From Promethearchaeota archaeon (GTDB lineage: Archaea; Asgardarchaeota; Lokiarchaeia; Sigyniarchaeales; SOKP01), in contig JAHLWS010000077.1 in assembly GCA_019057795.1 (NCBI GenBank), positions 1 to 64,000 on the forward strand: a DNA stretch of 64,000 nt, written 5' to 3'. Of the stretch, positions 6,512 to 44,698 are shown piece after piece. The stretch's first letter is position 1, and the number at the start of each line of letters is the position of its first letter. A program made the position numbers and the translations under genes. The notes below the pieces were generated by a model that saw nothing but the letters and a program-made list of their open reading frames with translations, had not been told where the DNA came from and did no database searches.

Positions 6512-6564
6512 CATTATTCTTGAAGATTTACCGTCTAAATATATATTTTTGCAGTCTGATTGCT

Positions 6565-6774: not shown

Positions 6775-6916
6775 AAATCCTTTAATAGTATTAACAATAT
6801 CCAACTCTATTTTTCCCTATTATATTTGATAAAAATAAATTTTATTGTAACACCATAAAATTCTAATATTTTTATACATAAATCTGACTTATACTAAATT
6901 GTTAGGATGAAAATTT

Positions 6917-23170: not shown

Positions 23171-24727
23171 TTAATCCTCTAAATAAGGTTTCAATTTTAT
23201 TAATACCTCTTTTTCTATCAAAGTGGGATCTTGTCGGTAGTTCCCATCAATAAAATCTAATTGAATTACAGAAAAACCTTTGGACTCTATTTTATTCCTT
23301 TTTTCTTTATCTTCTTCTTGTACGTGGTCGGAAGCGTGAGGAGGTCCATCAACAAAGACATAAATCTCATTTCTATCTTGTTTATAGTAAAAATCCGCTG
23401 TAGCTATTGGTATATCATTATCAGTAAATAATTTTTGTGCTTCATCTGGTAAGGGTAATTTTTGGCGTAATATTTCGTCCAATACCATTTTTTCTAGTTC
23501 AGAATCACATTTTTCCTTAAGATTTTTTAATTTTTCTCTCAGATTAAGCTTAGAAACTTCTGATATTTCTTCTAATTTACAATTATTTAAGGAATTTATT
23601 AAAGGAAGAATTATTTTACGATTTAAGAGATTATGTTCAAATTGATTACGAAATCTTAATAGACAGTTATAACACGCGGTTATACAGGCATCCATAGTTT
23701 CTTCATAAGGCTCTAGCGATTTAACATGTAATATTCTAAATAAGTTTTCAATAAATTTATCAAATCGGTCTAGTGAGGTATTTAGCAACGATTTTAATAC
23801 TCCCGTGCCTCCTTCTTCTGTTTCAAAAATAACAATCGATTGCTCATTTTTGCCTGGAATTGGGTTGAGAAAACTACTTATTTCTGACTCTTCTAAATTA
23901 TATGTGAGCATTATACTTTGAATTATAGCTTCCTTTAAAGTAGTGTAATAAGAAGTTGGATCGAAATCTCCAATTAAAGAAAAATCAAATACTACTACAT
24001 CGTGAATTCCATCAATAAATAACCAGAAATCTTTTTGGAGATGGCGTTCGCTACCACCCTTCGGACACGCCTCAATATGGGTTCCGGCTTCATTGTCGTG
24101 TAACCATTGACCACAAGCACTGCAAAAGTTAAAACTATGGAGTTCTATTTCATTGGTAGTTTTCGATTTGATCCGAGAACCTTTATTTACCATATAAATA
24201 TTTCCATTATGTTCATACGAGATTTTTGCGATTTGGTTTTGATCACATGTGATTCCATAATTTACAATTTTGGATTTTTTATGCTTATAATTTATTGTTA
24301 TTTCATATCCCTTGATCTGCCTACTTTCTTCGTCGCAGGTAATCCTAGGACCGCTTGTCGAGAACATTTGAGGAAACCTAAGGCTCGATTTAAAACTACT
24401 TAATCTTATTTCGGCATCGCAAATCGGGCACTTTATTAAAGAAGTAGAGGTTGAACTTGCGCTATCGATCAAAATTTCATTACAATTTTCGCAAATATAA
24501 ATGTTATCGATATTTAACTCGCCCCCTTCAGATTTAACCATCGCTCTATTAATATTATACTTATTACCTAAAAAGTAAACTTGATTGTGAGGAGCAAATT
24601 CTCGAATCGCTATAACGGAAGATCGCCAATTATCGTAATATTTAGATTTATCTTGATTAAACATAGTCAACAATGTAGTATCGCTTGGAAACGCGTAATT
24701 TGGTAAAAAACCATAATTTCTTAACAT
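23171..24727 (-). pseudogene. 3' half of an SF2 helicase-DUF1998-DUF559-like nuclease protein; helicase core missing
   Basis: Begins at the GFLPNYAFP motif that normally lies mid-protein; FETEEGGTG and CITACYNCLL..RNQ..H (DUF1998); ADFYY...VFVDGPPH...DKEKR (Vsr/DUF559-like). No Walker A/DEAH motifs; stop codons lie just upstream. Confidence 0.75.
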
Positions 24728-28400: not shown

Positions 28401-28946
28401 GAAGTTCAGAGAGATAATATACGCGAGGAAATTAAGGAGTTAAAAACACATATTGAGAGAGAATGCTCTATTATTAGACAAAGTCCAAGATTAATTTCTG
28501 TTGCTATTATAGTTCCTGCTTATGATGATGGTAAACCCGCAGAAAATATTGAAGAAGCTACACAATTAGCGGATAAACATGCCATTGATATGGCTGCTAT
28601 GAAATCAGTTTTTGAATTTGAAAAGCAACGAGGTTGGGAACCAACGGATAAATCTTTAATTAGATGTGGATATGATATTGAAAGCGTTAATCCAAATAAT
28701 CCATCTGAGATCCGCCATATAGAAGTGAAAGGTCATGCTGGTGAAGCAGATGTCTTTATTTCCAAAAATGAGTGGATGAAAGCGCAAAATGATGTTTCGG
28801 GTAGATATTGGTTATACATTGTTAATAAAGCTTTGGATGGGGCTAAGGTTGTTCCAATTTCTGATCCAGCCAATAAATTCCAACCCGAGAAAATTATTAC
28901 TGAAAGATTCAAAATACCATTAAAACAGATAAAAGAATATTATTAA
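25428..28946 (+). CDS. SNF2-family helicase with a C-terminal DUF3883 nuclease domain
   Basis: PLPHQ, IADEPGAGKT, VDEAH, LTATPH, TDAASEGINLQ, EQRMGRIHR; C-terminal GYDIES...IEVKG...ISKNEW...YWLYIV. Confidence 0.92.
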   Translation: MIMEEFYDIFERNPQELKDRLIVGPFSNTELYKIVDINYIPGDSEKVKFSLVNTKTNQFLPLILEKDDLKEIKFALEFNFSGDPYRFFMHMMGNAIRSNFNQDPLFAVGSSKIDPLPHQLLAVYKYILPRPNIRFMIADEPGAGKTIMGGLVIKELLSRGDVKRILIVVPGSLTGQWQEELKIRFNEDFTIVNSEILQALGPRAWTQFDKIITSMDFAKNEVQKKRQKGKRIIRNSLIGIKWDLVIVDEAHKMNAEWIAKTMRQKITRRYQLGQALSDSTDHFLFLTATPHKGKSDSFRLLLKLLEPDSFDTAYMDINSVLNQFLDEGYPIFIRRLKEEMRKEDNSYIFPPRDAKTITFTLSPLESVLYQQVTDYVRHIFNLAIFIGGQSRSSIGFMLKLLQRRLNSSVRSIHLTLIHRKEKLEEILNNPDFDKSIKELRLQIEKRTQEVEEAELNDDIPPKKVEELHKEIFCLSMASNRAELETEINTLKKLIHSAAEAETEQCESKLYKLLELIEEQLGSQQLIIFTEYKDTLDYLLERIPENFSKGIIHGGMNLNERRIVQEKFWKNDIQILLCTDAASEGINLQCCWNLINYDIPWNPNRLEQRMGRIHRYLQDHECTFFNLVAIQTSDGQPIAEGQVVELIFKKLDLMREELGGTDRVFDVIGNFFEECKFEELLIQSLNKEPIDLTSELNKKNSQKIKDLLDLKSNMDAGLDFFIRQRQISEDSRLWPRYISEYVRLGFWDAGAQIHVSGKESFKIQVPPKINAQIKKNEKKFGLIANRNLEITFYKPIEKQLLLNVQQYDYITAGHPLLEAIIDISIKNGQKDIQKGTIFLDPSHGLHGLLWFIEIIFSDGTGAKEVSRQVVVLFTSYMDINNGTNDKIKFQVLSPQILWDLRHAFSAASRVQMKPYLDFFSHYKEYVVEGIGSGLCKNEELELIQWRQKAKKIKMNALEHREIRERSRLEAEISLLLDKEAEGEDVEQKILEKEVQRDNIREEIKELKTHIERECSIIRQSPRLISVAIIVPAYDDGKPAENIEEATQLADKHAIDMAAMKSVFEFEKQRGWEPTDKSLIRCGYDIESVNPNNPSEIRHIEVKGHAGEADVFISKNEWMKAQNDVSGRYWLYIVNKALDGAKVVPISDPANKFQPEKIITERFKIPLKQIKEYY

Positions 28947-28967
28947 ATTCTTCACGAAAAGGTTAAT

Positions 28968-31697
28968 ATGAAAGATAAATTAATTGAATATTGGTTTCCA
29001 ATCAATACTATCGGAATTGAGGGTCAAAAGGAGAAACAAGTTTCTATTGGAAGAATTCCAGTAATTCATTTGTATTTTGCTAGAAGGCCAACTTGCGCTG
29101 CAAGAGCTATTATTTTATCGAGTTTATTAGATATCCCCAATAGTGATGATCTCTTAAAATTTCAACTAAACCTTGTAGAAAATTACGGATTAAGAAAAAT
29201 TCCTAATCAATTGCTATACAATAAAAAGAATATGAAAATCAATAATGTTATTCAATCAATTCTATTAAAACAAAATACTCATCCTTCTAAAATAAGAGCA
29301 TTTGATCCATTTGCTGGAGGAGGAACATTCCCATTAGAAATGGAAAATCTTGGTATTGATACTTATGCTTCAGATTTGAATCCAGTCGCGGTTTTAATTG
29401 AGAAAGCTACATGTGAATATCCTCAGAAATTTGGATTGAAGTTAATTGAAGAACTTGAAAAATATTTTTTAATAGTTCAAAAAAAATTAGAACAAAGAAT
29501 CTCTCGAAAATATAATAATGACTTACATCCTGATAATCAAATTAATTTATTTTTATGGGCACGACAGATTCCTTGTCCCGAATGTGATCTTAATATTCCA
29601 CTGATAAAGAGATTCCTACTTTCAAAGAAATATAAATGGAGTCTCTTTCCAGAAATACCTAAAAGAGAAGAAAATAATGAAATAAAATTTTCTATTAAGT
29701 GGTCAAATAATTTAAATGGTTACTATTCGAGAGGAGTACTTTCATGTCCACGATGCGGAAAATCAATTCCTCGAGAAGAGGTTATTAATTTTATTTCTCA
29801 AAATAGAGATCATCATCGATTAATTGCTTTATATGAAGATTTTCCTGATAGAGAATCTAGCGCAACTGGAAGTTTTCGAATTCCAACCTCAACTGAAAAA
29901 AAAAATGCAGAAGTTGATAAAAATCAAATAATTGATAATTTCCTAGAAGATTATCCCGAAATAGATCTCAGATTTCCTGAAAAAGTACTACTTTGGAGAG
30001 TTCAAAAATTTGGTATTACATCTATTTTGAAATGTTTTAATTCTCGTCAACTGTTATTTTTAAAAGCACTTCTGGATATTATAAATGATTTAAAATCTGA
30101 GATTTGTAGAAGTTTAAATAATCCTGAATTCGCTAACGCAATAATTTTATATTTATCATTTGGTTTAACTAAGATCGCAGATTTTAATTCAGTTTTAACA
30201 GAATTGAAAACTTCTTCCAGTCCAGCAATTAGAAACACTTTTAAAAGAGCGGGGCTTTTTATGGTTGGTGCTTATATTGAAGGAAATCCAGTGAAAGAAA
30301 ATGCATCTGGAAGCTGGTTAAGATATTTTAATTCACTTAAAAGAGCACTAATTAATCTGATCTCACAACCAAGAATCAATAATAATTTGATTACAATTAA
30401 GCAAATGGATGCAATGGACTTGGAATATGAAGATGAAAGTATGGATTTTTGCTTTACAGATCCACCTTATTATGATAATATGCCTTATGCTTCATCTATG
30501 GATTTTTTTTATCCTTGGTTAAGAGAATTATTAAAAAATTCCTACCCAGAATTATTTTTAACTAGTTCAACACCAAAAGATACAGAATTAATTCAAGATA
30601 GATTTCGTCATGATAATTCTATAAAAAATGCGAAAATCTTTTATGAAAAAGGAATGGGTAAGGCTTTTTCTGAAATTTATCGAGTTCTTAAAAAAAATGG
30701 TTTAGCTGTGATAGTTTTTGCTCATAAGGATATAAACGCTTGGGAAACATTACTTCAAGCGATAAATGATTCAAAATTGGTAATAACAAGTACATGGCCA
30801 TTATTGATGGAGATGTCTCATGGCATGCGAACATTAAATGTTGTATCTTTAGATTCAGTTGTATTACTCGTCTGTAGAAAACTTAGGCGCGAACATCAAC
30901 GTTATTACGATGAAATTTTTAGACAGGAATTAGAACAAGTAATTCTGAAAGAACTTGAACGTCAATGGCGATTGGGATTAAGAGGGGCCGATTTCTTTTT
31001 AAGCTCGTTGGGGCCTGCCATTGAAGCGTTTAGTAAGTATGAAGCTGTACTTGATGTTAAAACGGATAAATCTTTAAACATTCACGAATACCTTAAATTT
31101 GTTGATACCATATTAATTAAATTTACTCTTAGTAAAACTCTAAACAAAGTTTATTCTAGTATTGATGCTGAAACTCAATTTTATTTAGTATGGAGGGCTT
31201 CATATAAGCTATCTTTATTACCTTATGATGAAGTTTGGAAATTTACACACACTTTAGGATTAGATGACTCCAGTTTAGAAGGTAAAATTATAATAAAAGT
31301 ACGGGTTAAATCTAAAACCTTATATAAATGTCTTGAAACATTAGATAAAAAAGAAAAATTCTTAGAAAAAAAATTTACTCCATCATCCCTAATCGAAGCT
31401 CTCCAACATTCTGGATTTTTATGGAGTGAGAATTCTCCCTTTCTTGACGAGATTATTAATACCTATCAAGAAAAATATAGTGATGAGTTCTGGCATGTAG
31501 CTCAAGCATTATCCAACATTCAACCAGAGGCAAATGAAACCAGGTTATTCTTGGGCTTAATGAGAAAATATGGAAAAGGATTGAAATTAAAAATCAAATC
31601 CAATGGAGTAAAAAAGAAATCAAAAATTGTTCAAAAAACATTTAATATTGAAGGAAACAATGTTATCTTAAAGAGAGATAAAGAGGTGGAAAAATAA
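28968..31697 (+). CDS. DUF1156-family adenine DNA methyltransferase
   Basis: IHLYFARRP...AARA N-terminus, DPFAGGG (SAM binding), TDPPYYD (catalytic), CPEC/CPRC zinc ribbon, RGADF. Confidence 0.92.
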   Translation: MKDKLIEYWFPINTIGIEGQKEKQVSIGRIPVIHLYFARRPTCAARAIILSSLLDIPNSDDLLKFQLNLVENYGLRKIPNQLLYNKKNMKINNVIQSILLKQNTHPSKIRAFDPFAGGGTFPLEMENLGIDTYASDLNPVAVLIEKATCEYPQKFGLKLIEELEKYFLIVQKKLEQRISRKYNNDLHPDNQINLFLWARQIPCPECDLNIPLIKRFLLSKKYKWSLFPEIPKREENNEIKFSIKWSNNLNGYYSRGVLSCPRCGKSIPREEVINFISQNRDHHRLIALYEDFPDRESSATGSFRIPTSTEKKNAEVDKNQIIDNFLEDYPEIDLRFPEKVLLWRVQKFGITSILKCFNSRQLLFLKALLDIINDLKSEICRSLNNPEFANAIILYLSFGLTKIADFNSVLTELKTSSSPAIRNTFKRAGLFMVGAYIEGNPVKENASGSWLRYFNSLKRALINLISQPRINNNLITIKQMDAMDLEYEDESMDFCFTDPPYYDNMPYASSMDFFYPWLRELLKNSYPELFLTSSTPKDTELIQDRFRHDNSIKNAKIFYEKGMGKAFSEIYRVLKKNGLAVIVFAHKDINAWETLLQAINDSKLVITSTWPLLMEMSHGMRTLNVVSLDSVVLLVCRKLRREHQRYYDEIFRQELEQVILKELERQWRLGLRGADFFLSSLGPAIEAFSKYEAVLDVKTDKSLNIHEYLKFVDTILIKFTLSKTLNKVYSSIDAETQFYLVWRASYKLSLLPYDEVWKFTHTLGLDDSSLEGKIIIKVRVKSKTLYKCLETLDKKEKFLEKKFTPSSLIEALQHSGFLWSENSPFLDEIINTYQEKYSDEFWHVAQALSNIQPEANETRLFLGLMRKYGKGLKLKIKSNGVKKKSKIVQKTFNIEGNNVILKRDKEVEK

Positions 31698-31699
31698 AT

Positions 31700-34495
31700 A
31701 TGAATTTATGGACGCAAAATATAACCCCCAGAAGTGAAATTGTAAATGAACCTATAAACGAAAGCACCTTTGCAGCAAGGTTAGACGAAGTAGTCTCAGG
31801 AAGAGCTGCTCCTTATTATCGAGATCCCGTTTTGTTTTTTGATAATACACATATTACTAAAGGTATGGAGAAACTATTAAATATAGCTGGTCAGACCTTT
31901 TCTACGAATAAATGCCCAGGCAATAATGTAATTGAACTCCAAACTAGCTTTGGTGGGGGAAAAACGCATTGTCTTGTTGCGTTATATCATTTATCTCAAC
32001 GACCAAATTTATTAAATGAACATCCTAATCTCTCGTCTTTGAAAATAAAAGCGGTCGATTCGAATCTTAAAGTAAAGTGCTGTGTTCTTGTTGGTTTGGA
32101 TTATAACATTAGTGAACCTCGATCTGTTTCTATTGATGGTAAACAAATGCCTTTAAATACTTGGTGGGGTGAGATAGCTTATCAATTAGGAGGTGAAAAA
32201 GCGTATAAAAAAATACAATCGAATGATAAAGATTGGATACCGCCCTCTAAGTCTTCTCTTAATGAAGTATTTAAAACGATTGATAACCCGTGTTTAATTC
32301 TACTTGATGAGATTGTGCATTATTTAATAAATGTACATAAAAAAAACCCAGAATATTACGGGCTTATGATAAACTTTTTCCAAGTTCTAGTTGAGGAAGT
32401 ATCAAATCATCCTAATGTCATTTTAGTTTTTACATTACCTGCTTCTGATTTGGAATTAGTGAATAAATTGGGTCGCCAAGCATTTCATACAATTGATAAA
32501 CACACAAAAAGGCATAAAACAACAATCGATCCTGTTCAATATGAAGAAGTATATCATATTATTCGATGTAGGTTATTTGAACCAGTAAATCAATCTCAAG
32601 ATGATGGAATAAAAAGAGTTTGCAATGATTATCTAAATTATTATATGTCGAAAAAGAAATTTTTTCCAGAAAAAGTAACTAAAAAAGATATTACTAAGAG
32701 ATCTCTTTCTTTCAATGAAAAAATGAATATTGGATATCCTTTTCATCCCGCATTAATCGATGTTTTATATCAAAAATGGGGGCCTCATCCAGATTTTCAA
32801 CGGACGCGTGGTATTTTACGAGTTTTTGCTAAAATTTTAAATGCCGCTTATAGAAATATAAAATCGGATATTATCACAATAGGAGATGTTCCCCTAACGG
32901 ATGCATCCGTAAAAGGTGAACTGCTTGGATATTTAGGTACTAATTTTGAGCCTGTATTAACAACAGATTTGGGGCGAGCTACTGACCTTGAAGAAAGCCT
33001 AGGTGATGATTATTTAACTTTTCATTTAGGACAAGCGATATTTACAGGCTTTTTTTTCCATTCAATGAGATCTACCACAACTAATATTGGTGCAACAAGA
33101 GAAGAACTATGTTTAGCTATATTAAAACCCAGTATCAAATATCCAGCGTTAGTAATTGATATGTTGGAAGAAATGAAAAATCATTTATTTCATCTTTTCG
33201 AGATGGGAGACAGATATTATTTATTAACACAAGCAAATCCAGTTTCCATGATCTTAGCTGAAAAAGAGAATCTATCTCAAGATACAATTAAAATAGAAGC
33301 TTTCATTGAAAAACTCATGGATAAAGCTATTCCTAAAGCACATAGCGTAATAATTTGGCCTGACGATTCAAAAAATATCCCAGATCAATCCAATATCACG
33401 CTAATCGCAATGAATCCTAACTATTTAGTTCCAAAAGGTTTATCGCTTCTGCCAAATGTTTTTGCTTCTAAAATCGAAGATTGGATGACAACTAGAGGAA
33501 CAGTTCCAAGAGAAAATAAAAATGGGTTAGTTTTTATATTTTTTGAGGAAACCGAATATATAAGCTTAAGGGATAATGTTTTAGACCTAATGGCAATAGA
33601 GAATGTCATTAAGCAAGCTAAAAACAGTTCAATTCTTGAAAAGGCTCAAATAAATGATTTAACGATAAAGAAAAAGAATTTAGAGACATACCTTCCTAAA
33701 TTAATTATTTCCTCTTATTCTTATATTGGTAGACCAACCCTTTCTAATATTGATGGGATTTCGAAGGTAACTCTCTCTTTATATAGTATAGATAATTCTA
33801 AGAGAATTTTTGTTCAACGTATTAAAGAAGAAATGAAAACCCGTGATTGGTTGTTAGATCAAATAGGGCGTAAAATAATTCCCTCGAATTTTTCTGATTA
33901 TATCACTACACATGAACTATGGCAGCGTCAATTCAATGTTCCAGGGCTCGAATTGTATGACGATAAGAAGGTTCTCTTATCTGCTATTCAATCTATTATC
34001 AGTACCACGAAAGAAGGACATGAAAAATTTGGTTTTGGTAATCTTAAAGAAGATCAAAATTTCACTGATAATTTAAAACCTGATGATTTTACCTTCTTTG
34101 CAAAACCGGGAACTCAAGTTCAAATGAGAGATTTGAAAGTCTCGGGAACATCATATCTTATGTCTGAATCCTTTTTAAAAAAAATTGAGTCTAACGCATC
34201 ACCTCCTGAACCCCCGATTGATGAACCACCAATTGACGAACCACCAGGATTATCAGATACAGAAACAAATATAAAATTAAATTTGGATGTTTCATGGGAT
34301 CGTATTAATGATTTAAGAAAGTTTGTGACTTTGTGCAATTTTCTTGGTCAAAAAGATCCAAATACCAGAGGTAAATTCACCCTTGAATTCAAATCAGAAT
34401 CTGCTCTTTCAAAATTAGTTTTTAAAAATTTGAAAAAAGCTTTGGAAGATTTAAAAGTTCTTTGGGGGGATGATATCACAATTGAGTTTGAGTAA
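31700..34495 (+). CDS. DUF499 AAA+ ATPase
   Basis: FAARLDEV, LQTSFGGGKTH (Walker A), LILLDEI (Walker B), YPFHP, FQRTRGILR; Pro-rich linker PPEPPIDEPPIDEPP. Confidence 0.92.
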   Translation: MNLWTQNITPRSEIVNEPINESTFAARLDEVVSGRAAPYYRDPVLFFDNTHITKGMEKLLNIAGQTFSTNKCPGNNVIELQTSFGGGKTHCLVALYHLSQRPNLLNEHPNLSSLKIKAVDSNLKVKCCVLVGLDYNISEPRSVSIDGKQMPLNTWWGEIAYQLGGEKAYKKIQSNDKDWIPPSKSSLNEVFKTIDNPCLILLDEIVHYLINVHKKNPEYYGLMINFFQVLVEEVSNHPNVILVFTLPASDLELVNKLGRQAFHTIDKHTKRHKTTIDPVQYEEVYHIIRCRLFEPVNQSQDDGIKRVCNDYLNYYMSKKKFFPEKVTKKDITKRSLSFNEKMNIGYPFHPALIDVLYQKWGPHPDFQRTRGILRVFAKILNAAYRNIKSDIITIGDVPLTDASVKGELLGYLGTNFEPVLTTDLGRATDLEESLGDDYLTFHLGQAIFTGFFFHSMRSTTTNIGATREELCLAILKPSIKYPALVIDMLEEMKNHLFHLFEMGDRYYLLTQANPVSMILAEKENLSQDTIKIEAFIEKLMDKAIPKAHSVIIWPDDSKNIPDQSNITLIAMNPNYLVPKGLSLLPNVFASKIEDWMTTRGTVPRENKNGLVFIFFEETEYISLRDNVLDLMAIENVIKQAKNSSILEKAQINDLTIKKKNLETYLPKLIISSYSYIGRPTLSNIDGISKVTLSLYSIDNSKRIFVQRIKEEMKTRDWLLDQIGRKIIPSNFSDYITTHELWQRQFNVPGLELYDDKKVLLSAIQSIISTTKEGHEKFGFGNLKEDQNFTDNLKPDDFTFFAKPGTQVQMRDLKVSGTSYLMSESFLKKIESNASPPEPPIDEPPIDEPPGLSDTETNIKLNLDVSWDRINDLRKFVTLCNFLGQKDPNTRGKFTLEFKSESALSKLVFKNLKKALEDLKVLWGDDITIEFE

Positions 34496-35354: not shown

Positions 35355-35489
35355 CTAATCTTCATCTTGATCGTCTTTATTTTCCTGATGATTTGGATTC
35401 AATTGATCAGAACGATTATCCATTGAAGCTTGGTATGCTGGATTGTTTGGATTCATGCTATTGGACCTATCATCATTTCTTTTTCCCAT
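35355..35489 (-). CDS. 44-aa microprotein with two NR/DR-S-x-x-[ML]NPN repeats
   Basis: MGKRNDDRSNSMNPNNPAYQASMDNRSDQLNPNHQENKDDQDED; GAGGTGA ribosome-binding site just upstream of the ATG; below the ORF-track size cut-off. Confidence 0.75.
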   Translation of the reverse strand: MGKRNDDRSNSMNPNNPAYQASMDNRSDQLNPNHQENKDDQDED

Positions 35490-35557
35490 TATTTCTCACC
35501 TCTTCTCCTTGTCGATTTTTTTTTCACCCATTAACAAAAAAATAAGATCATTTATAA

Positions 35558-35583
35558 ATATTATTGATTTAGATCAATAATAT
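35558..35583. promoter_or_regulatory. Palindromic operator adjoining a TATA box upstream of the CARF operon
   Basis: ATATTATTGAT-TTAG-ATCAATAATAT (perfect 11-bp arms) directly after TTTATAAA (35551-35558). Confidence 0.65.
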
Positions 35584-35650: not shown

Positions 35651-36316
35651 ATGAAAATACAAATTGCTACTTTTGCAGGGGTTCCGAGTCATATTTATGA
35701 TGCAGAAAAACATTTCCATGCAGAAAAACTATTTTTAATCCTTAGTGATGAAAATAAAGATGATAACTACCAAGAGAATCAAGAATTTATTTCAAATATT
35801 AATGAAGTATCTCAATTTTACGGAAAATTAAATGTTCCCATTATGAAGGTGTATGTGAACTATAAGAACTTTATAGAAATGACATTTAAGTTGGCTAATC
35901 TTCTAAGAGAATTTCAAGAAGGTGATGAGATTTTATTAAATCTAAGCGGTGGTAGAAGATCAATGCCGATCTCATTAATCTATGCGGGAACATTTATTAG
36001 TAATTTCAAAGATATTAATATTAAGTGTGTAGTAATTCCAGAAGATAAAACTTATGAACCATTCAATCTACTTCCAAACTATTTACCAGACAGTATTGAT
36101 GTTAAATTAATGTCTAAATTATCGGAGAAAAAGCCATTAACTGAATTAGAAGAATTTTTAGGAATAAAACAGCCTACAATTTCAATGAGGCTCAAGCGAC
36201 TAGAAAAGTATGAATACATTATCCTTAATGGTAGAGAAAGGAATTTAACAGATTTAGGACACATGGTGGTAGATATTAACGTATCAAGGTTAAATAATAT
36301 AAAGGAGAAAAACTAA
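35651..36316 (+). CDS. Csa3-like CARF-wHTH transcriptional regulator
   Basis: MKIQIATF strand and ILLNLSGGRRSM CARF motif; LTELEEFLGIKQPTISMRLKRLE...LTDLG wHTH. Confidence 0.85.
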   Translation: MKIQIATFAGVPSHIYDAEKHFHAEKLFLILSDENKDDNYQENQEFISNINEVSQFYGKLNVPIMKVYVNYKNFIEMTFKLANLLREFQEGDEILLNLSGGRRSMPISLIYAGTFISNFKDINIKCVVIPEDKTYEPFNLLPNYLPDSIDVKLMSKLSEKKPLTELEEFLGIKQPTISMRLKRLEKYEYIILNGRERNLTDLGHMVVDINVSRLNNIKEKN

Positions 36317-36317
36317 G

Positions 36318-37172
36318 ATGATTACTTGGATAACAACGGTAGGTTGGAGCCCTTTTGCTGTAATCAATCCAGTTTGGGCGTATTGCAAGGAATTTAAGGA
36401 GTGCCCAAGTAAGTTTATATTGGTTCATACTGAAAATGAAAGAATTAAAAAAAACCTCTCTCTTGTTAAATCTTATCTCAAGGAGATCGCTTGGGGGTAT
36501 TCGAATGAAAATTTTTTGGAAAATAATATAATTATCCATCAAATTGATGGTGAAGATATTCAAAATTATGCTAATACTCTAAAAAAAATAATCTCAACAG
36601 AAATAGATAACAGTCCTAAAAAAATCATCTTAGATATGACACCTGGGAGAAAATACATGTCTGCGATTAACGTATATTATGGTCTACAGAGATCCAATAT
36701 TCCAATCCAAGTTTTCTATTTACACCTAGAAGAGAGTAGATATCAAGATGTCCCATATCCTTTAACTCCTATTATTAAAAATGATTTGGTAGATATAATC
36801 GATTCAACGGAGATATTTACTAAAGACATAGGAGAACTCAAAGATAGCAAAGTAGAGATTGGAAATGAGCAATTGGATGATATTGTGAAGCGAATTGGAA
36901 GTGATCAAGAGAGAAGGGAAAAATTGATTTTACTGGCAATTTCAAAGGGATTAAGTTCCAAAAATAAAATAAGCCGATTTCTATATGACGAGGGCGATTC
37001 TATCCAAGGCTCTGAACTTAGAAAACTAATAAAGAAATTAGAAAGTAAAAACCTAATAAAAACTACAAAAATGAGGAATAAAGCAACAGAGTATCTCGGA
37101 TATAAAATAATAGAGAAGGGTTTAGATTTATTAAAAAAAATCCAAAGAGAGAATAGAAATGAAAGAAAATAA
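36318..37172 (+). CDS. CARF-like Rossmann domain plus C-terminal wHTH
   Basis: WITTVGWSPFAVIN and ILDMTPGRKYMS CARF motifs; ELRKLIKKLESKNLI...YKIIEKG wHTH. Confidence 0.8.
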   Translation: MITWITTVGWSPFAVINPVWAYCKEFKECPSKFILVHTENERIKKNLSLVKSYLKEIAWGYSNENFLENNIIIHQIDGEDIQNYANTLKKIISTEIDNSPKKIILDMTPGRKYMSAINVYYGLQRSNIPIQVFYLHLEESRYQDVPYPLTPIIKNDLVDIIDSTEIFTKDIGELKDSKVEIGNEQLDDIVKRIGSDQERREKLILLAISKGLSSKNKISRFLYDEGDSIQGSELRKLIKKLESKNLIKTTKMRNKATEYLGYKIIEKGLDLLKKIQRENRNERK

Positions 37173-38247
37173 TGCAACTCTATCAATTCAACAGTCAATG
37201 CTGCTGTTGAATGAATTATATTTGGATGCTAAAACGAGATTTGTGATAAAAGACTGCTTATATGGATTAGAATTAATGGAAGTCGAGTTATCTGAGAAAG
37301 TTGATATTAATATTTGGGTTAAACCCAAAGACATTGAAGATGCATACAATAAGATAATTCCAAAATACGCCTATGAATTTCCAAACAAATTTGATTATTT
37401 TGATATATTTCTACGCTCTGGATTCTTTTTTAATAATTACTATCAGAAATTTTTTGAAAATAGTATAAATGCAAATGAAGATACAAATTTATTAGAAGGA
37501 GATTTACCTATTGCACTTGCATTTGATACAAATTTATATTACAATCTGTTCTTCGATCAATTAACCGAATTGCTCCGCAAAAGATATGGATCTCCTCCTT
37601 ATTTGATAAATTTTTTATGTTCGACTGGTGTTAAAAAAGAGCTGACGGGGTATGAATGGAAATATAAATCAAACGATATAGAAGATTTTAAGGAAATTTG
37701 TAAAGATCCTGATGTAATTGATAACTTTCTCAATCAAAATAAACTCAGATCAAGATTATGGCATCTAGGACATGTAGATTATTTAGATTCGATTGATTCA
37801 ACTCAGTCAAAAATAGTTGATATGGATAAAACCATAGAAACTGATGATATGGATTCTAAAATTCTTGAGGGTCTTGTCGAATATATTAACCAGCAAAATA
37901 TTAAACTTTACTTGTATAGCCAAGATTCCGACTTCATTTCGAGAGCTAAAGGGAATCGAAACGTCATTCCTATTTATTTGGATAAGATTCCGTTTCATAA
38001 GCTAAATAGTCGATTATCTTGCGAATGGGAGCAATTTGCAAAGTTACTTTATGTAATATTAATTACATTTGGAGCTATTCGACTGGAATTTGAAGATTCT
38101 GCCTTATCCACTTTTGGTATTTGGAAAGGAAAGAAATACCATCATTGGCTCGATAAGAGCATAAAGATTGTATCAAAAGATAATATTATAACTAATATCC
38201 AAAAGGACCTACAAATCCTTGAGAATATAAAATTTAAGGAGGTATAA
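37159..38247 (+). CDS. PIN-domain ribonuclease
   Basis: LAFDTNLYY, VKKEL, MDSKIL and YSQDSDF provide the acidic PIN residues. Confidence 0.8.
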   Translation: MKENNATLSIQQSMLLLNELYLDAKTRFVIKDCLYGLELMEVELSEKVDINIWVKPKDIEDAYNKIIPKYAYEFPNKFDYFDIFLRSGFFFNNYYQKFFENSINANEDTNLLEGDLPIALAFDTNLYYNLFFDQLTELLRKRYGSPPYLINFLCSTGVKKELTGYEWKYKSNDIEDFKEICKDPDVIDNFLNQNKLRSRLWHLGHVDYLDSIDSTQSKIVDMDKTIETDDMDSKILEGLVEYINQQNIKLYLYSQDSDFISRAKGNRNVIPIYLDKIPFHKLNSRLSCEWEQFAKLLYVILITFGAIRLEFEDSALSTFGIWKGKKYHHWLDKSIKIVSKDNIITNIQKDLQILENIKFKEV

Positions 38248-38331
38248 CATACATGCGTAATCACTTCTATTTCTATATCGGAAGATATGAAAAATTGTAT
38301 TCTTTAAATGATAGCAATTATTTAGGGGAGG

Positions 38332-40923
38332 TTGTCTACTATTAGTTATCTTTACTACGAAAATCTACCAGATATTGAGGAAATTGAAAGATTTCGAAAA
38401 GATTGTTTTTATAATTTATCAGATTTTATTAGATTTTTGAATGTTTCTAAATATGCACAACTTAATAGAGTAATTAAACTCTCTTATCGAATTCTATCAA
38501 GTGAGCAAGTTAATAAAATGTTCAAAGATATGCATTTTAAGTTTTGGGAAGTTTATGGATATGAAATGGAAGATATAATTAATGATTACACCGAAGATGG
38601 TATTTTTATTGAAATTTTTGATCCAACGGGAAAAGCTGATAAACATATTTTTGAAGATTTTATTAAATCATCTATTATAACGGATATCGAGCCGAATTTT
38701 AATGATAGAGAAAATTGGATTAATGTGATACAAAGTTATCCTTTATATAATATACTTCAAATTGATCGAGAACCAGAGTCTAAATGGATTTATTTTAAAC
38801 CTAATACCTATGATATACAGCGACAAATTAACGCAATTCATAATCTTCAAAGCAAGCCTAGAAGAGAACATTTACCCTTGTTAAAACTATTTGTAAGTAA
38901 GCAAAGGACCATATGGCCCAATTTTGATCGAGTTAAGATTAAGAATTGGAAGTTATTAAGTGATCCAAATTTTCCTGGAATTACCAATCAAAGAAATTAC
39001 GTTCAAATAGCATTGGGTACTCCGGATTTCGCACTTTTAGAAGGACCACCTGGTTCAGGCAAAACTCATACCATTTGTGAGATAATACTTCAAGCTATAG
39101 AAAGAAATATGAGAATATTATTATGTGCCTCTACTCATGTTGCTGTGGACAATGTTTTAGAGTATTTAATGGATAGAGATGAAGTAATTGCGGTGAGAAT
39201 TGGTAATCAAAATAGTAAATCAATATCTCCTGATGCTAAGAAATATTTATTAAGTAATAGAACAATTACCGAAAGAAAAAGATTAATCAAAAAGTTAACA
39301 GAACTTGGAGAAGACAAAAATAAAGGTCAGAAGTATTTCTTAAATGTATTAAAATCTACTGATGGTGAATCTGAAGTAGAACGTATGATCTTAGATAATG
39401 CAAATTTAGTATGTGGTACGGTAATTGGAATATTGCAACACCCAGACATAAAATCTGAAATAAATACTCCCCAAGCTGTATTCGATGTTCTAATTATTGA
39501 TGAAGCAAGCAAGACAACACTCCAAGAATTTATTGTACCTGCTATGTATTGTAGTAAATGGATATTAGTTGGAGATATAAAGCAACTTTCTCCTTTTGTA
39601 GATGATCTAATAGTAAGAAAAACAATAGATGGATTTCTTAATGATGACGAAAAAAACATCTGTAGAGATGCATTTTGTTCTTGGAAATATCCTAAATTCA
39701 ATACTATTATATCAGAATCAGATCAAAAGATTAGAGACCTATACAAAGAACAGTTTCAATCGTTAGGCCTTGAATTTTTAGATTTAGATGAACAAGTTGA
39801 AGAAAAGATTTCCAATTTCTTAGCTCATCAAATTTTTATTGGAACTCCCGAAATGATCAAAAAATATGAAAAAAATTTACCAATGGATGCTTATTTAAGA
39901 GGAGGAGGTTTTTTCCTTAGATTGAAATATGCACACTCGTATTGGCAAAAAATTTTTGAGAAAGAGAAATATTCAAATAGATTTAAGGGAAATTTTGGGG
40001 AAATATTATCTTGGCGTTTAATTAGTTTATTCAATTTAAGGTTTGCTGAGAGAGATCTTAAAAAACAAGAGTTTTTAGAGGATATTGAGAAAATACTTCC
40101 AAATTGGAAGGATAAATATGAAAAAAACCAATTACGATATGATTTTTTACTTCTAAAAAAAATTGCATTTCCCTCAATACTTGAAATTCTACAAGAGGGT
40201 TTTTATGAATATAAAGCAGAAAATCAGCCTTATTTTAAGCATACCGTATCAAGTCATGGTTTCAATCTTGAGGATAAAGAAAGGCGCTATGAAATTTTAG
40301 AATATCAACATCGTATGCATCCTGAAATTTCAAAATTTCCAAGAGAGAATATATATAAAGGAGAAGCATTAAGGGATAATCCTAATTTATCTGTAGAGAG
40401 AGAATGGAAATATCAAAAATATACATCAAGAACTATTTGGGTTAATGTTCTGGAAAGAAATAAATCTAAAATAAATATTAATCTAAAGGAAGCTCAAAGA
40501 CTACTAGAAGAATTAACTTCCTTTTTAAATTTCTCTAAAGATAATCCTAAAGACGGAAATGATTATTGGGAAATCGCAGTCCTAACATTTTACAGCTATC
40601 AAGAAGATTATTTGCGTACTATCATAAATAGGAAATATAATATAAAGTTAAATTTACAGGAATTTGAATTACCAAATTATAATGCGAGATTAAGTATTTG
40701 TACTGTTGATAGATTTCAAGGTCATGAAGCAGACATTGTTTTCTTATCATTTGTTAAGACAAATAGCGTAGGATTTCTAAACTCGATAAATAGACTTAAT
40801 GTGGCAATAACTAGAGCTAGATATCAATTAGTAATGATTGGTAATAAAAAATTCTTTTTTAATCAAAAAATTTCGTCTACACTTAAGGAATTAGCGGAAA
40901 TTAAAGATGATATAAGTATTTAG
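38332..40923 (+). CDS. UPF1/DNA2-NAM7-like superfamily 1 helicase
   Basis: EGPPGSGKT, ASTHVAVDN, IIDEAS, VGDIKQL, QHRMHP, TVDRFQGHEAD, RLNVAITRAR. Confidence 0.93.
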   Translation: MSTISYLYYENLPDIEEIERFRKDCFYNLSDFIRFLNVSKYAQLNRVIKLSYRILSSEQVNKMFKDMHFKFWEVYGYEMEDIINDYTEDGIFIEIFDPTGKADKHIFEDFIKSSIITDIEPNFNDRENWINVIQSYPLYNILQIDREPESKWIYFKPNTYDIQRQINAIHNLQSKPRREHLPLLKLFVSKQRTIWPNFDRVKIKNWKLLSDPNFPGITNQRNYVQIALGTPDFALLEGPPGSGKTHTICEIILQAIERNMRILLCASTHVAVDNVLEYLMDRDEVIAVRIGNQNSKSISPDAKKYLLSNRTITERKRLIKKLTELGEDKNKGQKYFLNVLKSTDGESEVERMILDNANLVCGTVIGILQHPDIKSEINTPQAVFDVLIIDEASKTTLQEFIVPAMYCSKWILVGDIKQLSPFVDDLIVRKTIDGFLNDDEKNICRDAFCSWKYPKFNTIISESDQKIRDLYKEQFQSLGLEFLDLDEQVEEKISNFLAHQIFIGTPEMIKKYEKNLPMDAYLRGGGFFLRLKYAHSYWQKIFEKEKYSNRFKGNFGEILSWRLISLFNLRFAERDLKKQEFLEDIEKILPNWKDKYEKNQLRYDFLLLKKIAFPSILEILQEGFYEYKAENQPYFKHTVSSHGFNLEDKERRYEILEYQHRMHPEISKFPRENIYKGEALRDNPNLSVEREWKYQKYTSRTIWVNVLERNKSKININLKEAQRLLEELTSFLNFSKDNPKDGNDYWEIAVLTFYSYQEDYLRTIINRKYNIKLNLQEFELPNYNARLSICTVDRFQGHEADIVFLSFVKTNSVGFLNSINRLNVAITRARYQLVMIGNKKFFFNQKISSTLKELAEIKDDISI

Positions 40924-40936
40924 TAGGAGGATTATT

Positions 40937-42055
40937 ATGGAAATTATTTTAAAAAAAAAAATAAAAGTAAAAAAATTTAAAGCTCTCATTGATATAGGCG
41001 TTAAAGAAAAGCGGACAGATATTGTCGCACTTCTAATGATTGCGAAATCTCATGGTGATGTATTATCTGAAAAGATTATTTTTAATGAATTTATTTTTCG
41101 AGAGAATAGAACTATAGCTAAACGTATTCTTCAGAGATGTCAAGATTTAGGCGTAATCGATGAAAATCTTAAAATAACAAAAGATGGTATAAATGCTCGA
41201 GAGGATGGAATGATATATCGCCCATATACAGGGACTTATTATGTATGGGCAACTAAAGATCCATTATTACCCCAAAGAATACTAAACATAGAAATAGTAG
41301 GAGAAAAAATCAATTTTAAAAAAGAAATTTTGGGACCGAGAAACCCAGAGGGAGTTACCATAGAAAAAAATATTGAATCTTTACCAGAGTGGTTAAAAGA
41401 TACTGAAAAAATAAAAAATATTAAACTTCTTGATGAAAAAAAAAGAGATATCAGGATTGAATCTATTCAGGAGAAAATTGAGCCTATATCTGTTTCCGAA
41501 GAATTAAAAGCTCAAATAAAATTAAAAACTCATTCTAAATTGATTAAATTCACGGAACTCTTTGAGGATGAAAGGGAATTATCTATATTTCCTGATATTC
41601 GCTCAGTATGGGAGCAACTAATAGGAAATAGATATGAGCAATGGAATTGGGATGACGAAACTCTAAAAGTAAGTTTAAAAGAATTAAACGAAAAGGAGAT
41701 ATTATCATTTATTAAAAAATTTGAATTTGATTCCCCCAAAATCGAGAATTTCGGTAGTTTTAATGATTTTTCTCTGAATCTTAACATTAGACCGCAATCA
41801 GACGCAGAAGCAGAGTCTTGGGCTAATAAGTTATTAGAGAATCAAATTAAAGAATACATGTTCCCGAATACATTTGAGAATTATAAAGAAGGAATAAATA
41901 AGAAATTTAAGGACTACAAAATCAAATTTCAGGATTTAGATGAATTATCTATGAGATTTATTGATAAAATTTTAGAAGATGAAGTCCCAAATGAGCTTTG
42001 GTTTGTCCAGGCACCATTAGATGTCTTTCCTATAAAAAACGAAGGAGATGATTAA
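40937..42055 (+). CDS. Hypothetical protein with an N-terminal wHTH-like region, partner of the helicase and PLD
   Basis: GGAGG RBS; IAKRILQRCQDLGVID...ITKDG; overlaps the next gene by 8 nt. Confidence 0.6.
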   Translation: MEIILKKKIKVKKFKALIDIGVKEKRTDIVALLMIAKSHGDVLSEKIIFNEFIFRENRTIAKRILQRCQDLGVIDENLKITKDGINAREDGMIYRPYTGTYYVWATKDPLLPQRILNIEIVGEKINFKKEILGPRNPEGVTIEKNIESLPEWLKDTEKIKNIKLLDEKKRDIRIESIQEKIEPISVSEELKAQIKLKTHSKLIKFTELFEDERELSIFPDIRSVWEQLIGNRYEQWNWDDETLKVSLKELNEKEILSFIKKFEFDSPKIENFGSFNDFSLNLNIRPQSDAEAESWANKLLENQIKEYMFPNTFENYKEGINKKFKDYKIKFQDLDELSMRFIDKILEDEVPNELWFVQAPLDVFPIKNEGDD

Positions 42056-43580
42056 AATCGTAGAAAAAATAATACCTATCGAACACCAACAGATATTAAA
42101 AAATAAAACGCTTTTAGAAAATGTTTGGCATCTTAGGGATAGTAGAGATTTTGAAAAAAACCTACTAGAATTTTATGAGCCAGATATATGGTTTACAGGT
42201 AAAGAAAGGGTGTTTGAAACATATATTGCAAATAATATTATTAAGAATGCTAAAGATTCTATTGTTTTATGTTCTTTTTTACTTGAAAAAACAAAAATTA
42301 CTGATGCTATTTTAGAAGCTGTAGAAAATTCCATCAGGGTATATATCATAACTGCGTCTGAAAATCAATTAGATAAAATCTACGATTTAGAAAACGAGCT
42401 TGAAGATGAAAGGGTTGTGGAGCATAAAAATCTCCTAAAAACACTAAGAAAGAAGTGTCTAATTAGAACTGCACCTCATTTTCATGCTAAATATGTATTG
42501 ATTGATCCAAAACAAGAAACTCGATTAGGTTTTATATCAAGCGCAAATTTTACACAACATGCTTTCTCTAAAAATGTTGAGATAGGTCTGCAGTTAAACC
42601 AAGACCAAATAATTGATTTGTTTAATTTATTTTGTTATATTTTTTGGAATGAGAGTAAACACGAATATCTTGTTGAAAAAACATTAAGATCTGTTAAAAA
42701 ACCCACTAAGAATTTTTTTGATACCCCCCAATTGAGTCATATTATATCTCCTGGCATGAATATAGATTTTGAAAAGACACTAAAGGATTACATTGAATCG
42801 TCGAATGGAGATGTTTATTTAAGTACTTATTCAATCGACTCCAAGAATTCCATATTTAAACTCTTATTGGATGAGCTAGAAAAAAATAGAAGAGTTAAAA
42901 TTTATGTTAGACCAAGAAAAAAGGATTTGGAAACTTTAAGCAGTCTCCGACAAGCGGGAGCAGAAATCAAAGGACATCCCTATTTACATTTCAAGTGTTT
43001 ATTGATTGATGATGCTTCATATAAGAAGGGTTTGATTTTCTCTGGAAATATAACTGAAGAAAGTTTTGGAAAAAGCCATGATGTTGGAATCTTTCTAAAT
43101 TCTACACAATATGATTTACTATTAAATATTGTGAAGAAATGGGAAAATGTTATCCCTGGAGTTTTCGTAGCGAAAGAATCTATAAGTAATTTACCAACAG
43201 GAAAGTATTGGAAATGGAATAAAAATAAGTATGAATTTTATATTCAACCATCTGAAATTCATAAGGCTGGAGTGTTTGAAGGAGATAATATTGATACTTA
43301 TGATAATTATAAACCAAATTTTGAAATTCCAGAAGCATTAAAGGAAACTACCAAAGAAATTATATTCAAATGGGTAAACTTACCTCCCCAATTACCTAAA
43401 AAATCAGAACAACTAAAAGAATTACCCGAAAAATTACCTAAAAAAGTTAAAGATTTACTTCAAAAATATAGAATTTACCAGAATGGAAAGGAGTTTTATT
43501 TATTATATCAAGAGGGAGATAATCTTAAGGAATTAAGAAAGTTATCAGAACTAACTAATTATAAGATTGTTATAAATTAG
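42048..43580 (+). CDS. Phospholipase D-family nuclease with two HKD motifs
   Basis: HAKYVLID...SSANFT...N.E and HFKCLLID...SGNIT. Confidence 0.9.
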   Translation: MIKIVEKIIPIEHQQILKNKTLLENVWHLRDSRDFEKNLLEFYEPDIWFTGKERVFETYIANNIIKNAKDSIVLCSFLLEKTKITDAILEAVENSIRVYIITASENQLDKIYDLENELEDERVVEHKNLLKTLRKKCLIRTAPHFHAKYVLIDPKQETRLGFISSANFTQHAFSKNVEIGLQLNQDQIIDLFNLFCYIFWNESKHEYLVEKTLRSVKKPTKNFFDTPQLSHIISPGMNIDFEKTLKDYIESSNGDVYLSTYSIDSKNSIFKLLLDELEKNRRVKIYVRPRKKDLETLSSLRQAGAEIKGHPYLHFKCLLIDDASYKKGLIFSGNITEESFGKSHDVGIFLNSTQYDLLLNIVKKWENVIPGVFVAKESISNLPTGKYWKWNKNKYEFYIQPSEIHKAGVFEGDNIDTYDNYKPNFEIPEALKETTKEIIFKWVNLPPQLPKKSEQLKELPEKLPKKVKDLLQKYRIYQNGKEFYLLYQEGDNLKELRKLSELTNYKIVIN

Positions 43581-43597
43581 GTAATAATTTTAAAGAG

Positions 43598-44698
43598 ATG
43601 AGAAAGTTGTATAAAAAAGAGTTAAAAGAATTCTTTAATTTACATAGTAAGGATAAGATATTTATGGATGTGATAACACCTAAATCTTGCGGTGGTGGAG
43701 AAGGTTTCAAATATTTAGCCCTCCTTGGAGATTATGTCTTAAATCTCACGCTATTTAATTATTTTTCGAAAAAGGGGATTAAAAATTCGGGTGAGCTAAC
43801 TAAAAAAATTCAATCCGTTCACAACGAATGGACACTCTGCCAACTTGGAGAATTTCTTGAAATTACTAACGAGATGAATCCAACGGATCCTAATCATAAG
43901 ATTACGGATAATGAGCTTAAAGAAAGCGTTGAAGCATTAATTGGGGCAAATAATAAAATCCACGGACTTTCGAAAAGTGAATTAGATGTTGAAAAACTAA
44001 TAAAAATCATAGATAAAAATGATTTTTATGATTCAAATCCAGTAGGGGAACTTATAGAATTCTTTCAAGATAATGGGAGAACTTTACTTTTTCCTGACCC
44101 TGTAAGGATTAGTAAAGCTAATGAACCTCCATTATTCCGTTGCACAATAAGAGAAAGTATTATGAGCAAAGATTTTCTCATAATCAGCGAAGAATTTAGT
44201 AGAAAATGTTACGCCAGAAAAGACGCAGCTCAAAAATTTCTATATGATCTTGGATTGACAGATAAAGATGGTATAGGGATTAAATCCAGAAAGAAAGAAG
44301 TTACAACTATTCCCAAACAATCACTATCAAGTGAAGATATAATCTTTTCTAAATCAACTATAGGTGGAGGTTATTTTAAACAAGAACCAATGGAACTTTC
44401 CACTGAAAAGGGAGAAAATATCGCAGAATATACTATGCGAAAAGTAGAAAAAAAACCATTTTTCACTTTAATTTCCTTAAGCGGAAGATTAAATACACTT
44501 TCTGGATCAACATGGCACACATCATTGCCAAATGGCGAATTAATCCTTCTACATCTGAAGTTAGATGAACAAGATTATTTTGATATTGGTCTTGCCGAAT
44601 CTAAAAGTAAAGCTAAAAAAAAAGTTGCTTTAAAAATTATTAAAAATTCAAACTTAATCCAATGGTTAAAAGATAATTATAGAGAAAAAATGATTTAA
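43598..44698 (+). CDS. RNase III-family protein with two dsRNA-binding domains
   Basis: YLALLGDYVL and ESVEALIGA; dsRBD1 NPVGELIEFFQ...PLFRCTI...SRKCYARKDAAQKFL; dsRBD2-like GLAESKSKAKKKVALKII. Confidence 0.8.
   Translation: MRKLYKKELKEFFNLHSKDKIFMDVITPKSCGGGEGFKYLALLGDYVLNLTLFNYFSKKGIKNSGELTKKIQSVHNEWTLCQLGEFLEITNEMNPTDPNHKITDNELKESVEALIGANNKIHGLSKSELDVEKLIKIIDKNDFYDSNPVGELIEFFQDNGRTLLFPDPVRISKANEPPLFRCTIRESIMSKDFLIISEEFSRKCYARKDAAQKFLYDLGLTDKDGIGIKSRKKEVTTIPKQSLSSEDIIFSKSTIGGGYFKQEPMELSTEKGENIAEYTMRKVEKKPFFTLISLSGRLNTLSGSTWHTSLPNGELILLHLKLDEQDYFDIGLAESKSKAKKKVALKIIKNSNLIQWLKDNYREKMI

Follow-up and report, generated by a model that had tools for sequence, protein, structure and literature searches.

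Do the seven genes that follow one another on the plus strand at 35651-44698 of a Promethearchaeota archaeon contig form a single defence system, and if so, what would switch it on? The window, here the whole 64,000-nucleotide (nt) stretch that was analysed (contig JAHLWS010000077.1 of assembly GCA_019057795.1, positions 1 to 64,000), had been given a preliminary description in which these genes, g1 to g7, were proposed to be an undescribed RNA-targeting operon of two CARF proteins, a PIN nuclease, a UPF1-type helicase, a protein X, a phospholipase D (PLD) family nuclease and an RNase III. That interpretation is, as a whole, partly supported. The six-gene unit g1-g6 is real, and its helicase-X-PLD trio is an invariant core with an architecture of its own, onto which the CARF control and effector block (g1, g2 and g3) appears from sequence comparisons to have been added. 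We favor the reading, to which we give a probability of a little under 0.6, that g1-g6 (35651-43580) are one inducible antiviral operon of an as-yet-unnamed kind, related to Mokosh and switched by alarm molecules. The genes are as follows.

35651..36316, + strand: g1, Csa3-like regulator with CARF and winged-helix domains, 221 aa (PADLOC, Pfam and NCBIfam profiles)
36318..37172, + strand: g2, CARF half (sensor) of a split CARF-PIN protein, bearing a winged helix at its C-terminus, 284 aa (PADLOC CARF_m1 CARF_PIN)
37159..38247, + strand: g3, the other half of the split CARF-PIN protein, a PIN-domain nuclease, 362 aa (CARF_PIN profile and AlphaFold model)
38332..40923, + strand: g4, UPF1-like superfamily 1 (SF1) helicase, first gene of the trio, 863 aa (AAA_11/AAA_12)
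40937..42055, + strand: g5 or X, putative winged-helix adaptor without a family name, marker of the trio, 372 aa (AlphaFold model, X-family search)
42048..43580, + strand: g6, double-HKD PLD-family nuclease, 510 aa (PLDc_2)
43598..44698, + strand: g7, RNase III-like protein with regions resembling double-stranded RNA-binding domains, 366 aa (Ribonuclease_3 match below threshold)

All seven open reading frames (ORFs) were found where they had been described, on the plus strand, with successive spacings from g1 to g7 of 1, -14, 84, 13, -8 and 17 nt. The description of the genes as overlapping or less than 20 nt apart therefore stands for every junction but one, the 84-nt gap preceding the helicase gene. 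The functional labels were likewise borne out by searches of Pfam, PADLOC and NCBIfam, albeit with a weak RNase III match for g7.

The helicase-X-PLD core and its CARF/PIN partners

The trio opens with a helicase that matches AAA_11 (1.1e-35) and AAA_12 (4.7e-38) and keeps the motifs GPPGSGKT, DEAS and QGHEAD intact. Its best match among defence profiles is MkoA (PDLC03920, 5.9e-84, at profile positions 551-857 only, the helicase core; PDLC03921, 3.6e-54). The PLD protein at the other end of the trio matches PLDc_2 over two stretches (3e-25) and has two HxK(x)4D motifs; residues H146, K148, D153, N167, H314, K316 and N334 are invariant among 19 archaeal and bacterial homologues. Its PADLOC matches are to DrmC (3.6e-25) and, at just 1.5e-5 and 22 bits, to positions 319-593 of the 610 in the MkoB profile (PDLC03922).

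Between them lies X, which has no match in Pfam, NCBIfam or PADLOC and whose profile found nothing meaningful among PDB sequences. In the AlphaFold (AF2) model of X (a pLDDT, or predicted local distance difference test, of 87), residues 25-92 form a MarR-type winged helix set in a long beta hairpin (Z up to 8.4, root-mean-square deviation, rmsd, 1.7-2.3 over 63-65 aligned residues). With the whole model, Foldseek returned nothing from the PDB at E≤0.001, and VIA-align returned only winged helix-turn-helix (wHTH) regulators, over the same residues 25-92. The most conserved residues, W355, P360 and D362, are all within the C-terminal tail. We considered whether X might be the split-off N-terminus of MkoA or MkoB and rejected this, the X profile aligning to Asgard MkoA and MkoB in hhalign with a probability of 0.1%.

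A complex of X and PLD was predicted with an ipSAE score of 0.80, the best control scoring 0.00. Among 80 solved complexes 58 attain that mark, and among 110 mismatched pairs 2 do; these counts apply only roughly to X-PLD because custom alignments were used. At least 84% of contacts were shared between runs, with a partner pLDDT of at least 81. The predicted interface is formed on X by C-terminal tail residues 342-368 and on PLD by residues 70-71, 92-99 (in which Y99 is near-invariant), 135-138, 154-155 and 189-230, a surface beside, not on, the first HKD motif (H146, K148 and D153). The X tail is thus predicted by modelling to dock onto PLD, as an anchor or a gate of the nuclease.

Close homologues come from Promethearchaeia and Lokiarchaeota, in keeping with a Loki-type Asgard host. 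We searched 400 Asgard genomes for X and retrieved 20 related loci for neighbourhood comparison. X is present in 23 genomes, which span 19 of the 85 genera; of the 41 other genomes of the window's genus, just 1 has it. The order helicase-X-PLD is kept in the 20 loci wherever the contig allows, mostly with overlapping start and stop codons, and X always stands between helicase and PLD, at the bacterial loci as well as the Asgard ones. The complete six-gene form recurs in two genomes, G186 and G249, and on three marine-sediment contigs. Searched more widely with a profile of 25 X sequences, the family numbers 972 clusters at 50% identity, of which 306 score E≤1e-30; nearly all are about 370 aa in length, and one comprises Vibrio splendidus and V. 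atlanticus.

One or more CARF genes adjoin the trio at all 16 Asgard loci with readable flanks, five more loci being cut by contig ends. They lie in several orientations and belong to the CARF3, window-type and CARF_m5 families: a Csa3-like CARF-wHTH protein of the CARF3 group (1.2e-51 to 3.4e-55 for the three members tested) is found at 11 loci, usually divergent from the operon, the window-type CARF-wHTH at three and a CARF_m5 protein at one. In G312 (L036, G312:C1, 122-13772) a complete type III-B operon, Cmr1-Cas10-Cmr3-Cmr4-Cmr5-Cmr6, overlaps straight into helicase-X-PLD, downstream of which the CARF and PIN genes lie in convergent orientation, and in G386 Cas6 and CARF-wHTH genes are upstream of the trio. 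At the two bacterial loci examined, from Vibrio and an unrelated metagenome contig, the trio is followed by a CARF-AAA-HTH regulator that matches the RtcR_PspF1 family at 4.7e-167 and 1.5e-159. Next in Vibrio splendidus (L049, GCA_041439805.1, 6194-13894) comes an NYN/OST-HTH RNase, and the cassette sits between BREX genes and a WYL-domain gene. Because a CARF regulator adjoins the trio in Asgard and bacterial loci alike, the link between the two, as read from gene neighbourhoods, holds across domains; the type of regulator differs.

A prokaryotic viperin gene (1e-76 to 1e-85) is present at nine trio loci, mostly on the same strand directly upstream of the helicase gene; at two of these a nucleotide-kinase-family gene intervenes. 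The best hit to the pVip profile in the window's own genome was partial, at 68 bits versus 254-285 for the true neighbours, and was counted as none found; the pVip control was positive in all 14 genomes. We also note that one trio (L027, G142:C122) has beside it, at 2082-7247, a second, convergent set of helicase (818 aa), 329-aa and PLD (510 aa) genes. The 329-aa middle protein is without a PADLOC match and clusters apart from X, and the set is possibly a diverged paralogous trio.

The three genes ahead of the trio supply the CARF and PIN domains. In PADLOC g1 scores against CARF1 (3.8e-18), CARF3 (4.3e-17) and Csa3 (1.6e-11), and in Pfam against Csa3_N and MarR/HTH_5, each below its cut-off; its match to TIGR01884 (1.4e-7) is also below the curated cut-off, with 31 bits versus 60. 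Csa3 proteins are transcription factors that combine CARF and wHTH domains and bind cyclic tetra-adenylate (cA4) (PMC8699464, PMC8844856). Like them, g1 has a two-domain CARF and wHTH build and a palindromic site at its own promoter; unlike them, it falls below the curated cut-offs and heads a nuclease operon rather than cas genes.

The products of g2 and g3, whose genes overlap by 14 nt, match opposite ends of one profile, CARF_m1 CARF_PIN: g2 covers positions 1-152 (PDLC01973, 1.8e-26; PDLC01972, 2.2e-25) and g3 positions 255-456 (3.2e-23). The AF2 model of g3, made with 17 homologues, has a pLDDT of 90.8, and its best match among solved structures is SiRe_0806 of Sulfolobus islandicus (PDB 9jxw; Z 15.8, rmsd 3.9 over 248 aligned residues; Foldseek 5.3e-6). 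The next matches, at Z 6-10, are PIN domains (AF0591, SMG6/EST1A, Nmd4, Rrp44, Utp24, Nob1 and VapC), and D123, E161, D232 and D256 are invariant across the 17 homologues. A sequence-level PDB search with g2 and g3 gave no matches, SiRe_0806 emerging from structure comparison only. SiRe_0806 has been solved with cA4 (PDB 9jxw, 9jxx; its activity is taken from the entry title only), and a literature search for it found no paper. Residues 1-359 of the g3 model align with chain positions 150-420 of SiRe_0806, beyond its initial 150 residues, and the part of the fused profile that g2 matches is the CARF end; we therefore read g2 and g3 together as a probable split form of this cA4-binding CARF-PIN protein. 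The window's version differs from SiRe_0806 in placing sensor and nuclease on two overlapping genes, in an extra winged helix on g2, and in sharing an operon with helicase-X-PLD outside any cas locus. The extra domain, a weak PadR/Rio2_N-type wHTH at residues 187-277, is a feature of the window's clade.

CARF and PIN genes are paired at six Asgard loci, in differing positions and orientations, and at all six they are two separate genes. Separately, a 350-366-aa protein with no PADLOC or Pfam match is encoded near the trio in two genomes (L035, 12620-13720; L044, 2845-3891); at L035 its gene comes straight after a CARF gene that stands alone, in the slot taken elsewhere by the PIN gene, and it may be an alternative effector.

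Promoter, operator and the source of the signal

Two elements precede g1.

35551..35558, + strand: TATA-box-like TTTATAAA, read from the sequence, with a putative promoter role
35558..35583, no strand: perfect palindrome ATATTATTGAT-N4-ATCAATAATAT, immediately next to the TATA box and a candidate operator for g1

The TTTATAAA box is about 93 nt ahead of g1, and the equivalent position is occupied by TATATAAA in G186 (L031) and by TATTTAAA in G249 (L032). Upstream of its g1 orthologue, G186 has identical palindrome arms at the matching position, and G249 has there a variant palindrome with a wider, 8-nt spacing. In the window the arm occurs at the operator site and at one chance site only. The palindrome beside the TATA box, conserved together with the g1 orthologues, is therefore a candidate operator. 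A sigma-70 promoter scan, a model irrelevant to an archaeon, showed no enrichment. In all three genomes a short ORF in divergent orientation is found just upstream of the operator (window 35355-35489 on the minus strand; L031 3804-3941; L032 3621-3749). The window's version, 44 aa long and beginning MGKRNDD, has many Asn, Pro and Asp residues; the versions in G186 and G249 (about 42-45 aa, MGKxKM..RIQSHAD..GKNQGF) are alike and unlike it.

These parts could work together as follows. A g1 dimer on the palindrome at the TATA box would hold the operon low; because the palindrome sits just downstream of the box, g1 may be an autoregulated repressor. Upon infection a nucleotide-type alarm would bind the CARF domain of g1 and release transcription, and the same alarm would bind g2 and so switch on the g3 PIN RNase. 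The helicase would translocate along foreign single-stranded nucleic acid, with X tethering PLD by its conserved C-terminal tail, as modelled, and PLD degrading the substrate. Most simply, the alarm would be a cyclic oligoadenylate made by the GGDD-bearing type III complex encoded on contig C29.

The preliminary description recognised no cas genes, CRISPR array or nucleotide cyclase, and this stands for the window, in which we found no CRISPR-like array within the 64 kb and no Cas10 palm match (the cas-gene scan covered part of the window ORFs); it does not stand for the genome, which has type III loci on two contigs. The locus on C29 encodes an 854-aa Cas10 with GGDD at residue 598, Csm3-type subunits and a CARF_m5 protein, and that on C83 is a type III-D locus whose Cas10 is without a canonical GGDD. 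The suggested genome-wide search for Cas10 or a CD-NTase was thus positive for the former, and no CD-NTase scored above the cut-off with the one profile used. Because C29 encodes a GGDD-bearing Cas10, cyclic oligoadenylates might reach the operon in trans.

Several points weigh against reading g1-g6 as one antiviral operon that is induced in this way. A Cas10 palm match is present in 8 of the 23 trio genomes versus 61 of the 377 others, a tally made with one profile each for Cas10 and CD-NTase on genomes that are mostly incomplete metagenome assemblies. G249, a 100% complete genome of the window's genus that carries all six genes, yielded neither Cas10 nor CD-NTase (SMODS), and G186, 97% complete and also with the six genes, yielded no Cas10 palm match. 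The regulator of the bacterial trios is of the RtcR type, and cyclic-phosphate RNA ends have been proposed as ligands of RtcR-type CARFs (PMC11090510). Repression by g1, as opposed to activation, is a guess from the position of the operator. Co-transcription of g1-g6 is suggested by the gene layout, and because the 84-nt gap between g3 and g4 contains TATA-like CTTTAAAT, the trio may own a separate promoter. The antiviral role of the trio is itself a proposal, albeit the most likely one. The nuclease substrate could be RNA or DNA, and the label "RNA-targeting" given to the locus earlier was not supported.

The same operon and parts could instead form a CRISPR-independent circuit that does not sense Cas10 cyclic oligoadenylates and in which the PIN RNase could itself make the signal, in a feed-forward loop. 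This is possible, if on the whole unlikely. It gains from the 15 of 23 trio genomes without a Cas10 palm match, the two nearly or fully complete six-gene genomes among them, from the missing SMODS match in G249, and from the RtcR_PspF1-type CARF-AAA-HTH of the bacterial trios; an analogy may also be drawn with the RtcR-headed CoCoNuT superoperons, which hold UPF1-like helicases together with nucleases whose predicted target is RNA (Bell et al., eLife 2024, PMC11090510). However, the nearest solved relative of g3 was crystallised with cA4, one locus, in G312, is fused to a Cmr operon, and the incompleteness of the genomes and the single profiles limit what the missing matches can say. Furthermore, both g1 and g2 retain a basic residue after strand 4 (in the motif SGGRR of g1, after strand 4, and in TPGRK of g2). 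Such a residue marks nucleotide-binding CARFs, whereas RtcR-type CARFs are mostly without it (PMC4012209). We therefore regard cyclic oligoadenylate as the probable signal of the operon, held with modest confidence, and a signal of some other kind as a tentative second choice.

Joining of the two blocks and comparison with known systems

The two parts of the inducible operon that we favor have different closest relatives. The window's g1 is closest to those of G186 and G249 (81% and 68% identity), as are g2 and g3 (47-52%). For the helicase, X and PLD the nearest counterparts are in G142, G143 and G082 (54-56%, 41% and 43-45%, respectively), compared with 37%, 29% and 29% to G186. The sole sizeable gap in the operon, of 84 nt, coincides with the seam between g1-g3 and g4-g6, and the same seam is gapped in relatives with a like mosaic (97 nt in L085, 178 nt in L086 and L087). 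The differing relatives indicate that the CARF/PIN block has been joined to two divergent trio lineages, and together with the gap at the seam they support the proposed merger of a CARF/PIN unit with a helicase-X-PLD unit. The idea that these sub-modules never occur together elsewhere clearly failed, both being found side by side in other genomes.

The same mosaic could be taken to mean that two independent systems, one a Mokosh-like trio and the other a CARF/PIN effector of the type III ancillary kind together with its regulator, were brought side by side by chance in a defence island. Defence genes do cluster in islands, the window holds several other systems, and the two blocks have different closest relatives and are separated by a gap with a TATA-like element. 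We nevertheless find this account doubtful. Each of the 16 Asgard trio loci with readable flanks has a CARF gene, as do the two bacterial ones that were examined, and since four CARF families in several arrangements are involved, island clustering alone would not predict the association. The six-gene order moreover recurs in at least five other genomes or contigs, and in G186 and G249 the PIN gene overlaps or almost abuts the helicase gene.

A bolder view, which we offer as speculation and think improbable, is that the trio and an obligatory CARF partner are an ancient CRISPR-independent immune circuit extending from Vibrio to Asgard archaea, in which the CARFs read an RNA-damage or infection signal instead of a product of Cas10, and that the UPF1-like helicase and SMG6-like PIN, often with viperin, could be a prokaryotic forerunner of eukaryotic UPF1/PIN antiviral surveillance. 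Least credible is a housekeeping, non-immune role in RNA surveillance akin to nonsense-mediated decay. In its favor are the Asgard host, the membership of the helicase in the UPF1-like AAA_11/AAA_12 group and the alignment of the g3 PIN with the PIN domains of SMG6, EST1A and Nmd4 (Z 8.3-8.8, 127-128 residues), but PIN folds generally resemble one another, the CRISPR-type CARF protein is a far better match (Z 15.8), and the module occurs in so few genomes (23 of 400, and 1 of 41 of the same genus), among restriction-type genes and with viperin, Cmr and CARF partners.

Among named systems the inducible operon resembles Mokosh most. Mokosh type I, where PMC11291487 cites it from Millman et al. 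2022, consists of the helicase MkoA and the PLD nuclease MkoB, and Mokosh is reported to degrade viral transcripts (PMC11291487). As in type I, an SF1 helicase of the same clade, by its MkoA profile match of 5.9e-84, and a PLD-family nuclease share one operon in defence islands. In Asgard genomes, Mokosh type I is a pair of adjacent genes, with an MkoA of 1129-1147 aa that has a kinase-like N-terminus and matches profile positions 8-1099 (E down to 4.8e-182) and an MkoB of about 700 aa. In contrast, the 863-aa g4 aligns only from MkoA position 551 and is missing the long kinase-like N-terminus; g6 matches only the core of MkoB (1.5e-5) and is missed by an MkoB genome search at E≤1e-10; and there are three genes, with X conserved between helicase and PLD and CARF genes as regular partners.

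The CoCoNuT superoperons are alike in that a CARF-type regulator leads a helicase-nuclease operon and defence would be staged by transcription, although the trio is without their McrBC-type GTPase, HEPN and coiled-coil parts, and its regulator is Csa3-like in archaea and RtcR-like, as in CoCoNuT, only in bacteria. A likeness to DISARM comes from DrmC being the top-scoring PLD profile for g6 (3.6e-25); the operon has no other DISARM gene, and the match reflects the PLD domain alone.

As for g2 and g3, the fused protein represented by SiRe_0806 and by the PADLOC CARF_m1 CARF_PIN profile is the closest known counterpart, g2 corresponding to its CARF end and g3 to the remainder. The statement that no named system has the full composition holds, in that nothing in PADLOC 2.0, Pfam or NCBIfam covers X. 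A literature search found no paper on the helicase-X-PLD trio or on CARF, viperin, helicase and PLD in combination, and a 2020 CARF census might mention it. That census, by Makarova et al., is the reported source of the CARF_m1 and RtcR_PspF1 definitions and may cover their gene neighbourhoods.

Should the operon work as proposed, it would be a widespread defence module absent from current catalogues, since PADLOC 2.0, Pfam and NCBIfam all lack a model for its marker, X. It would also exemplify a second mode of CARF signalling which, beyond activating a fused nuclease, induces transcription of a whole helicase-nuclease machine, sometimes with viperin. The operator sequence, the predicted contact between the X tail and PLD, and a cultivable bacterial carrier of the four-gene form (Vibrio) are testable handles. 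The question it raises is what ligand the CARFs bind in genomes where no Cas10 or CD-NTase was detected.

Gene g7 and the surrounding island

The RNase III-like gene g7 had been counted as part of the system, and this was not borne out. Its product matches Ribonuclease_3 (PF00636) at 1.3e-5 with 26.4 bits, just under the cut-off of 27, and TIGR02191 at 4.1e-8 with 33 bits versus a cut-off of 166. Signature segments FKYLALLGD and KESVEALIG retain two acidic positions, the others being altered. The gene begins 17 nt after g6, with a TATA-like TTATAAAT about 23 nt ahead of its ATG, within the end of g6.

No g7 homologue was found at any of the 20 other Asgard trio loci, and the marine-sediment relatives (71-73% identity in X) have an unrelated 269-aa gene after PLD in the slot of g7. 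Full-length homologues exist in six other Asgard genomes, three of which have the trio elsewhere, and these are solitary and without shared neighbours. Being missing at all other trio loci and in the nearest six-gene relatives, with solitary homologues, g7 was ruled out as a member of the system and is instead a local, lineage-specific neighbour; it would be a local add-on in a slot that varies among lineages. The family is patchy in Asgard genomes, with the long form of about 366 aa in seven of them and a shorter form (about 230-260 aa), matching only the first 220 residues of g7, in many.

Directly upstream of the operon, at 25428-34495, three large co-directional genes encode an SNF2-type helicase (1172 aa, including a NOV_C domain), a methyltransferase of the DUF1156 family (909 aa) and a DUF499 ATPase (931 aa), a set that is a restriction-like defence system. 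The reading of the locus as a ligand-sensor-linked multi-nuclease module within a defence island is supported. Two more defence-type genes belong to this island, one for a 1025-aa DUF4365 and TPR protein, at 15176-18253, and one for a protein bearing an MrfA-type zinc-binding (MZB) domain, at 23171-24727.

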